From a virus, in UHGV virus genome UHGV-0061377: 44,710 bases of DNA; one strand, written 5' to 3'. The position numbers and the translations under genes are program-made. The notes under the pieces are model-generated. The model ran no database searches. It worked only from the letters and a program-made list of their open reading frames with translations, and was not told the origin of the DNA. Positions 8,652-9,818 of this stretch are shown piece after piece (within the stretch, counting starts at the first letter, position 1; each line of letters opens with the position of its first letter).

Positions 8652-8663
8652 ATTTCCATTTCA

Positions 8664-8676
8664 CGCTCTTTAACAA
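8664..8676 (+). promoter_or_regulatory. boxA-like antitermination element (nutR-like)
   Basis: CGCTCTTTAACAA matches the boxA consensus of lambdoid nut sites and E. coli rrn operons. No convincing boxB hairpin seen. Confidence 0.4.
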
Positions 8677-8720
8677 TAAGCAATCAACTTAACAGTCAAT
8701 TCAAACTAAAGGAGTCAATT

Positions 8721-9818
8721 ATGCAACCACTTACATACCAACAGACTAGCGGATTTAGCCCGACTGCGGTGATAAATCGTTCTCAAACAAAACAGGTGCC
8801 AGGCCACGAAAAAATCCGTGATGCCGTCCGCGCCTGGTCGGCTGAAGATAATCAGGATGTCGTTGCCACACTCATTGCGGGAGGAATTATGGCAAACACT
8901 GCTGAGATATTCAATTTTCCAGTGCCGGATGTGGCACAAAAGGAGCCGCGCGTGGCAGATCTCGACGATGGTTATACGCGCATTGCAAATGAGTTGCTGG
9001 AAGCTGTGATGCTGGCCGGATTAACACAGCACCAGCTTCTGGTCTTCCTGGCTGTCATGCGCAAAACATATGGCTTTAATAAAAAACTGGATTGGGTGAG
9101 CAACGAGCAACTTTCCGAATTGACCGGGATATTGCCGCACAAGTGTTCTGCTGCAAAAAGCGTTCTGGTAAAGCGTGGGATTCTTATTCAGAGCGGGCGA
9201 AATATCGGCATTAATAATGTGGTCAGTGAATGGTCAACATTACCCGAATCAGGTAAGAAAAATAAAGTTTACCTGAAAGAGGTAAATTTACCTGAATCAG
9301 GTAAGAAAAGTTTACCCAAATCAGGTAAAGGCGTTTACCCGAATCAGGTAAACACAAAAGACAAACTAACAAAAGACAATATAAAACCTTTTTCGTCCGA
9401 GAATTCTGACGAATCCTCTGACCAACCAGAAAACGATCTTCCTGTGGTGAAATCGGATGCTGCAATTCAGAGCGGCAGCAAGTGGGGGACAGCAGAAGAC
9501 CTGACCGCCGCAGAGTGGATGTTTGACATGGTGAAGACCATCGCGCCATCAGCCAGAAAACCGAATTTTGCAGGGTGGGCTAACGATATCCGCCTGATGC
9601 GTGAACGTGACGGACGTAACCACCGCGACATGTGTGTACTGTTCCGCTGGGCATGCCAGGACAACTTCTGGTCCGGTAACGTGCTAAGTCCGGCCAAACT
9701 CCGCGACAAGTGGACCCAACTCGAAATCAACCGTAACAAGCAACAGGCTGGCGTGACAGCCGGAAAATCAAAACTCGACCTGACAAACACTGACTGGATT
9801 TATGGGGTGGATTTATGA
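8721..9818 (+). CDS. O: Replication initiator O (mosaic: divergent N-terminal origin-binding part, lambda-like C-terminal P-interaction part)
   Basis: 365-aa ORF with AGGAG RBS. From the internal MANTAEIFNF... it parallels lambda O (lambda begins MTNTAKILNF...). Contains ori iterons. The first ~55 codons are an extension with no lambda counterpart; an alternative start at 8887 also has a GGAGG. Confidence 0.8.
   Translation: MQPLTYQQTSGFSPTAVINRSQTKQVPGHEKIRDAVRAWSAEDNQDVVATLIAGGIMANTAEIFNFPVPDVAQKEPRVADLDDGYTRIANELLEAVMLAGLTQHQLLVFLAVMRKTYGFNKKLDWVSNEQLSELTGILPHKCSAAKSVLVKRGILIQSGRNIGINNVVSEWSTLPESGKKNKVYLKEVNLPESGKKSLPKSGKGVYPNQVNTKDKLTKDNIKPFSSENSDESSDQPENDLPVVKSDAAIQSGSKWGTAEDLTAAEWMFDMVKTIAPSARKPNFAGWANDIRLMRERDGRNHRDMCVLFRWACQDNFWSGNVLSPAKLRDKWTQLEINRNKQQAGVTAGKSKLDLTNTDWIYGVDL
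9240..9351. repeat. Replication origin iterons (ori-lambda type) inside O
   Basis: Five copies of TTACC(C/T)(G/A)AATCAGGTAA-like 17-18 bp dyad repeats (9240-9256, 9269-9285, 9288-9304, 9312-9328, 9335-9351), followed by an A-rich tract at 9352-9400. Confidence 0.8.

Follow-up and report, generated by a model that had tools for sequence, protein, structure and literature searches.

The early right region of the prophage in the window (the whole 44,710-nucleotide stretch of DNA analysed here) is very probably that of a lambdoid phage with the phi80-type gene order cro, cII, spacer, O and P, in which most of cII has been lost through a 458-bp deletion between direct repeats. The original prediction regarded the region as atypical and offered either a different arrangement or partial degeneracy as the reason, and each of these alternatives turns out to be right for a different part. 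The lysogeny functions are both different and degenerate, in that the lineage uses a CII of the phi80 type (YdaT family) and not lambda CII, and the gene is destroyed in this particular genome; degeneracy as the explanation for the missing N gene is not borne out, as N is absent from all of the close relatives. What appeared atypical is the known phi80 (YdaS-YdaT) arrangement plus a deletion, and is a case of prophage decay; the regulatory design is not new. The features of the region are listed in Table 1.

Table 1. Features of the early regions of the prophage, in window coordinates
Feature	Coordinates	Strand	Remarks
cro analogue, YdaS-type HTH, 76 aa	8421-8651	+	Pfam YdaS_toxin 4.1e-17, P22_Cro 8e-5; PHROG 35 transcriptional repressor
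cro-cII spacer, 69 nt	8652-8720	+	Unstructured; part of the immunity module
boxA-like element CGCTCTTTAACAA	8664-8676	+	Sole exact match in the window
Remnant of phi80-type cII (YdaT family), codons 1-52	8721-8876	+	Own AGGAG ribosome binding site (RBS) at 8710-8714
Deletion junction	8867-8877	n/a	One surviving copy of the 11-bp repeat CACACTCATTG
Native O RBS and start	8879-8891	+	GGGAGG 8879-8884, ATG 8889-8891; retained
Replication initiator O, 309 aa, intact	8889-9818	+	Pfam Phage_rep_O (PF04492) 1.8e-34
In-frame cII'-'O fusion ORF, 365 aa	8721-9818	+	Deletion product
Origin iterons TTACCYGAATCAGGTAA	9235-9356		4-5 copies, inside O
pO-like leftward promoter TTGAAT-17-tgCATAAT, start of O	8886-8914	-	Predicted; antisense target deleted
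Replication protein P	9815-10516	+	Pfam Phage_lambda_P 8.5e-62
cI-type repressor	7627-8316	-	Pfam HTH_3 and Peptidase_S24; ORF reaches 8382, likely start ATG 8316
pL, TTGACG-17-TTAAAT	5752-5780	-	Within OL operators mirroring pR/OR
pL leader	5475-5744	-	Without N gene, nut site or put RNA
kil, 68 aa, first gene of the pL operon	5268-5474	-	PHROG 294 2.5e-38; PGAP in A36

Megablast comparison with phage genomes identifies relatives that are 97-98% identical, for example Perceval (OV696612) and PhiR34_1 (PV340559), and in both of these cro is followed by an annotated cII of 180 codons and then by O. A three-way alignment of the window with PhiR34_1 and Perceval contains a clean, repeat-bounded gap of 458 bp in the window. 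The intact genomes have two copies of CACACTCATTG spaced 458 bp apart, the first at about codon 50 of cII and the second 12 nt before the ATG of O. It is precisely this repeat-to-repeat interval that is missing from the window, and with it have gone cII codons 53-180 together with the spacer between cII and O. The deleted length is of the form 3n+2, and the frames of cII and of the sequence preceding O differ by one base, so that it is by accident that the two coding segments have come to be fused in frame.

The closest complete genome is that of E. coli A36 (NZ_CP028739), which contains the same prophage with the same cargo genes. Between positions 3900 and 13700 the window and A36 are separated by nine events, these being seven SNPs, a 1-bp deletion at 7159, and the 458-bp deletion; the 1-bp deletion falls in a run of T residues and splits a 340-aa gene into two ORFs (7148-7504 and 6483-7109). 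In A36, PGAP annotates a 179-aa YdaT-domain protein, a 309-aa O beginning with MANTAEIF, and a 68-aa Kil (cell-division inhibitor), and the O proteins of the window and A36 differ at a single amino acid. At residue 134 of cI the window encodes an arginine and A36 a leucine; the arginine is the majority allele, and a cI mutation at this position in the window was rejected.

The cro-cII-O module is present in about 1,360-1,500 of the 5,426 complete E. coli genomes, and the 458 bp are present in all of the best matches listed; a junction-specific 35-bp probe has no match in any of the 5,426, and the junction is likewise absent from the other loci compared, including 80 IMG/VR loci. At least ten public contigs, originating in several independent samples, encode the exact 365-aa fusion protein, and the contig in ENA ERZ1689809 shares 100% identity with the window along 7.1 kb. 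All three of the fusion contigs examined (ENA ERZ1689809, Logan SRR27288040 and ERR4036465) also have the same split gene, and thus carry the linked frameshift. The fusion contigs, together with the near-identity of A36, lead us to conclude that the deletion is real, recent, and inherited within a small clonal lineage. It therefore offers a clean and datable example of prophage decay, with two inactivating lesions relative to an intact sister that is 99.9% identical, one of them a deletion between 11-bp repeats.

Whether the loss of cII was advantageous is a separate matter. Derepressed YdaT-type proteins are toxic, the YdaS/YdaT family name reflecting toxicity upon ectopic expression, and the deletion could have been positively selected as a step of domestication that disarms the prophage; the persistence of the lesion within a clonal lineage, and the second inactivating lesion only 1.7 kb away, are both in keeping with this. 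However, a single small lineage stands against approximately 1,400 or more complete genomes in which the gene is intact, and neutral decay would equally well give two lesions per 10 kb. We therefore consider positive selection somewhat unlikely, and favor neutral decay.

The ORF that begins at 8721 was originally described as an O gene with an N-terminal extension, and both the ORF and its AGGAG sequence are indeed there, but the native start of O, as indicated by the O profile and by PGAP, is the ATG at 8889-8891. An internal start with its own RBS had also been pointed out and does exist, but it is at 8889 and not 8887, at codon 57 rather than codon 56, and its RBS is the GGGAGG at 8879-8884. 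Position 1 of the O profile PHROG 277 aligns to residue 57 of the fusion ORF, and the Phage_rep_O domain identified by Pfam in the 365-codon ORF starts only at residue 77. Codons 1-52, by contrast, are those of PhiR34_1 cII with one difference (a glutamate at position 42 in the window and a valine in PhiR34_1), they also match codons 1-52 of A36 cII, and PHROG 163 ('CII-like transcriptional activator') matches residues 17-58. One uninterrupted reading frame behind a good RBS is what would be expected if O natively bore a 56-codon extension and cII had never been present, but this is highly improbable given that the segment corresponds to codons 1-52 of the 180-aa cII found intact in relatives, that the CII-like match lies within it, that O profiles and PGAP begin at the internal ATG, and that the junction coincides with a direct repeat; judged by the alignments, the native extension is wrong. 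Less credible still is a collapse of the assembly between the two repeats, since, although the gap is flanked by short repeats, 11 bp is far below the length able to collapse an assembly, and the same fusion occurs on at least ten contigs from independent samples and assemblers, with the same linked frameshift in the three examined.

The statement that there is no recognisable cII holds for the lambda type, as Pfam Phage_CII has no match to the fusion ORF, to its first 55 residues, or to the intact cII of a relative; it does not hold for the phi80 type, the 5′ end of which constitutes codons 1-52 of the ORF. The cII of intact relatives matches Pfam YdaT_toxin (PF06254; 8.5e-30, residues 67-154) and PHROG 163 (3.9e-67), and is 66% identical to phi80 cII over its full length and 52-67% identical to the cII proteins of HK639, HK225 and mEp237. 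Its residues 28-106 align, distantly (E = 0.002), to the solved YdaT structure 8bt1, and YdaT has been described as the functional equivalent of CII (PMC9986795, PMC8630535). These sequence relationships make the intact gene a true counterpart of cII, from a family distinct from that of lambda CII.

In the window, the remnant retains the homologous N-terminus of a YdaT-family protein, its placement directly after cro, and its own RBS, and the C-terminal tetramer-forming helix is deleted; Pfam has no match to the first 55 residues of the ORF, so that the YdaT_toxin HTH domain is not found. Residues 1-96 of YdaT alone form a monomer that does not bind DNA (PMC9986795), and because the 52-residue remnant is shorter than this, and by alignment lacks the recognition and tetramerisation helices, it seems likely that cII function has been lost.

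We propose that an ancestral region with the order cro (YdaS-like), cII (YdaT-like, 180 aa), spacer, O and P lost 458 bp by deletion between the two 11-bp copies of CACACTCATTG. With these went the cII codons predicted to specify the recognition helix and the other parts of the DNA-binding domain, as well as the tetramerisation helix, and also the cII-O spacer with its hairpin, the target of a putative oop-like antisense RNA. Chance in-frame joining of cII codons 1-52 to the O leader produced the single 365-codon ORF, and the native O RBS, the ATG at 8889, the O coding sequence and the iterons are all intact. The activator for the establishment of lysogeny is presumably gone, and maintenance and repression by cI should be unaffected; phage released upon induction would be cII-minus and of the clear-plaque type, and would establish lysogeny inefficiently. 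O is probably made in two forms, the native 309-aa protein and an N-terminally extended fusion translated from the strong cII RBS. The 'replication protein' of 365 aa is a chimera, for which the appropriate annotation is a cII pseudogene remnant plus O, and the prophage is best scored as defective in the establishment of lysogeny.

O itself has the attributes of a lambda O initiator, with a Phage_rep_O domain, iterons within the gene, and an overlapping P gene downstream. The leftward promoter-like site at 8914-8886 occupies the same place in PhiR34_1, and the intact cII-O spacer, which is deleted in its entirety from the window, contains a strong hairpin (z = -2.8); in phi80 and HK639, an oop-like M3 RNA is annotated in the equivalent spacer. 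The promoter-like match, the hairpin, and the phi80 and HK639 annotations together suggest that the intact spacer encodes an oop-like RNA, and we note that a canonical U-tract terminator for this putative RNA was not found in the intact spacer.

Upstream of the remnant, the interval between cro and the O-like ORF had been estimated at only about 70 nt and is 69 nt long. The boxA-like element within it is confirmed, CGCTCTTTAACAA occurring exactly once across the 44.7 kb of the window and never in 100 shuffles, and its 12-nt core is identical at 12 of 12 positions to the boxA of the E. coli K-12 rrsH leader (TGCTCTTTAACAA / ACTGCTCTTTAACAATTT). It thus has the sequence of a Nus-factor site such as those of the rrn, CRISPR-leader and suhB transcripts, and is part of the pR transcript, in the interval separating cro from cII. 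The RNA structure search suggested along with the original prediction found no boxB-like hairpin after boxA, the 69-nt spacer having a minimum free energy (MFE) of -5 kcal/mol and z = +0.45, and a partner boxA was not found on the pL transcript; the boxA and boxB hairpin pair that an N/nut system has on both the pL and pR transcripts is therefore not present here.

We surveyed this spacer in PhiR34_1 and in 80 IMG/VR loci whose YdaT is 98% or more identical, and there are only two types. In each of the 70 loci with the boxA-type spacer, the sequence is either unchanged or altered at one base, and 13 loci have instead a Perceval-type hairpin spacer that lacks boxA and goes with another immunity type, although the cII, O and kil modules are shared. 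Because the copies are identical by descent, with close relatives at least 95% identical, conservation of boxA is uninformative, and with only two spacer types among the loci we have dropped it as an argument for function. We regard boxA as a feature that the lineage carries with this immunity module.

A tentative, but not implausible, reading is that boxA serves as a loading site for the host NusB/NusE proteins, joined by NusA, NusG and SuhB, and works without N, either by making the pR transcript Rho-resistant or as a brake on cII translation coupled to Rho termination, which would replace lambda tR1. Both modes have precedents, in that rrn operons and CRISPR leaders use boxA alone for antitermination (PMC7665894), and the suhB leader boxA promotes Rho termination through translational repression (PMC12360218). 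The identity of the core to rrn boxA, its placement 33 nt ahead of the cII RBS, corresponding to that of nutR, its occurrence in a lineage without N, boxB or put RNA, and the documented cases of boxA-only regulation (PMC7665894, PMC12360218) all point in this direction, as does the phage UPF_BP1, which belongs to the same operator family and has an HK022-type putR in the same slot. Arguing the other way, the pL side lacks a matching boxA, sister phages of another immunity type have none even though they share cII, O and kil, conservation is silent because the copies share descent, and the element may be a fossil nutR from an N-bearing ancestor.

On the left side, positions 5754-5772 and 8372-8390, in the pL and pR operators, form a perfect inverted repeat of 19 nt, and homology to phages of other immunity types starts at about 5744, which is the predicted pL transcription start. 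It had been noted that there is no N-like ORF next to pL, and this is upheld, as searches with the N families of Pfam and PHROG found no match to any ORF adjoining pL, and no small Arg-rich N is found as the first pL gene. None of the close relatives has an annotated N, including phages whose deposited genomes name E. coli C or MG1655, both laboratory strains, as the host, and because the absence is common to all of these, deposited phages included, we take it to be a property of the lineage and not a consequence of decay. PADLOC gave no match to the genes between cI and pL.

The Arg-rich N-terminus of the TTG-start reading of ORF 5268-5678, which had drawn attention as N-like, does not stand up as a gene. 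PHROG 294 (Kil) covers only residues 60-136 of this ORF, and PGAP places the start at the ATG at 5474 and calls the 68-aa Kil. The commonest relatives, including PhiR34_1, have an in-frame TAG within the Arg-rich stretch (C to T at window position 5585), and in others the upstream part is disrupted either by 5 bp inserted at 5597 or by the loss of 1 bp at 5674; the Kil frame downstream of the lesion is preserved in most such variants. Because most relatives carry stop codons or frameshifts there, we regard the Arg-rich TTG reading as non-coding and have rejected it as a candidate N.

Other candidates for an antitermination element were considered and set aside. The pL leader does not fold significantly better than shuffled sequences (MFE z = -1.3) and is the most variable part of the region among the relatives, and a structured RNA there was rejected. 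There are two collinear blocks shared between left and right, CGCAGCTT(G/A)AATTTC and AATCAACT(C/T)AACA, and a shared block of 15 nt is reached in 3-7 of 2000 shuffles; the commonest relatives, PhiR34_1 among them, carry mutations in both blocks, for which reason a functional nut-like pair was likewise rejected. Rfam has nothing relevant in the whole window at gathering thresholds or between 5200 and 9000 with E values up to 10, with the put family perhaps absent from Rfam; HK022 putL and putR, located in NC_002166, have no blastn-short match at the pL leader or the cro-cII spacer, and comparison by eye with the HK639 putL-like RNA and phi80 nutL found no resemblance in the window. A put RNA, which is a two-stem RNA of about 70 nt with a conserved put sequence located downstream of both pL and pR, is thus not found at either place.

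Among known systems, the cryptic prophages Rac and CP-933P encode YdaS and YdaT (PDB 8bt1); the window cro matches YdaS_toxin, and the intact cII of the relatives matches YdaT_toxin. The similarity between solved YdaT and the intact cII is only distant, and the window copy lacks the whole of the DNA-binding and tetramerisation part. The CP-933P YdaT operator, TTGATT-N6-AATCAA, is absent from the cro-cII spacer; one exact copy occurs elsewhere in the window, at 16020-16037.

The closest parallel in overall organization is with phi80 (gene 30/cro, cII, M3 oop-like RNA, gene 15/O and gene 14/P), and mEp237, HK225 and HK639 have the same gene order; phi80 and the window also both have kil in the pL operon. 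The window differs from phi80 in that its cII is cut to 52 codons and fused to O, with the cII-O spacer gone, and the lineage lacks both the N and the nutL (boxA TGCTTTTTA, boxB CACGTAAACGTG) that phi80 possesses, as well as the putL-like RNA of HK639. Lambda nutR and the window both have a boxA between cro and cII, but in lambda it is accompanied by a boxB and acts with N, whereas the window has no boxB hairpin, no N and no partner site at pL; the rrn leader boxA is identical to it in its core. The put systems of HK022 and HK639 belong to lambdoid phages that, like this lineage, have no N, but there is no sequence similarity to them in the window, where the right spacer is unstructured and the left leader folds no better than shuffled sequences. 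The Salmonella phage UPF_BP1, which shares the operator family, has HK022-type putL and putR elements in the pL-leader and cro-cII slots; because putR is found there, the cro-cII slot would normally hold an antitermination element, and the pL-leader and cro-cII slots are evidently sites at which such elements are exchanged.

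Between cI and pL, the position of rexAB is filled by a 340-aa gene of PHROG 3482 and a gene for a 168-aa membrane protein, and searches with PADLOC and Pfam returned no match for either product. A 1-bp deletion in a run of T residues breaks the PHROG 3482 gene into two open reading frames; the gene is unbroken in both E. coli A36 and phage Perceval.

P and the nin/Q region are separated by cargo: a 1302-aa inverse autotransporter, an adhesin of the intimin/invasin type that has IAT_beta as well as Big_1/Invasin_D3 repeats, and a convergent gene for a 347-aa esterase. About 182 complete E. 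coli genomes share this arrangement. Within the adhesin gene, two tandem copies that are 98% identical and start 357 bp apart give one extra, duplicated Ig-like repeat.

Coordinates of features in the window and in related phages
Feature	Location	Strand	Remarks
340-aa gene, PHROG 3482	window 6483-7504	(-)	two ORFs in window; lesion at 7159
Membrane protein, 168 aa	window 5955-6461
Collinear block pair 1	window 5670-5684 / 8642-8656		pL leader / cro-cII spacer
Collinear block pair 2	window 5596-5608 / 8682-8694		pL leader / cro-cII spacer
Adhesin and esterase cargo	window 10766-15754		between P and nin/Q region
Tandem repeat in adhesin gene	window 12075-12423 and 12432-12780		349 bp per copy
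TTGATTATGAATAATCAA	window 16020-16037		exact match to YdaT operator consensus
Inverted repeat GAAAGCCGGTCTGCTGGAACAGAACCGACTTTC	PhiR34_1 4022-4054; equivalent place in A36		intact cII-O spacer
Hairpin GCCGCC-UAAN-(C)GGCGGC	Perceval 4958-4981; phi80 4462-4480; also compared loci L085, L086, L092		cro end
putL-like and putR-like sequences	UPF_BP1 (NC_047875) about 1590-1520 and 2815-2880	(-) and (+)

Read in transcript orientation, the pL leader has two collinear blocks in common with the cro-cII spacer, and the 15-nt block is equalled by 3–7 of 2000 shuffles. Because the commonest relatives carry mutations in each of these blocks, the blocks are probably not functional. The other types of cro-cII spacer, in the loci tabulated above, all have a conserved hairpin that ends cro, which may be a nutR-like element or a terminator.

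In the relatives with an intact cII-O spacer, a strong inverted repeat (z = -2.8) lies downstream of a pO-like leftward promoter, and is a candidate for an unannotated antisense RNA of the oop/M3 type. In the window, an intergenic site preceding the ninB-like genes upstream of Q matches the published consensus for the CP-933P YdaT operator (TTGATT-N6-AATCAA) exactly; by analogy with paQ it could be a cII(YdaT)-dependent site, or it could be a chance match.

The operators of the P22-like Salmonella phage UPF_BP1 belong to one family with those of the window (ACAACCATAGTTTTAAAT), and this phage contains sequences, without annotation in its record, that are near-identical to putL and putR of HK022.
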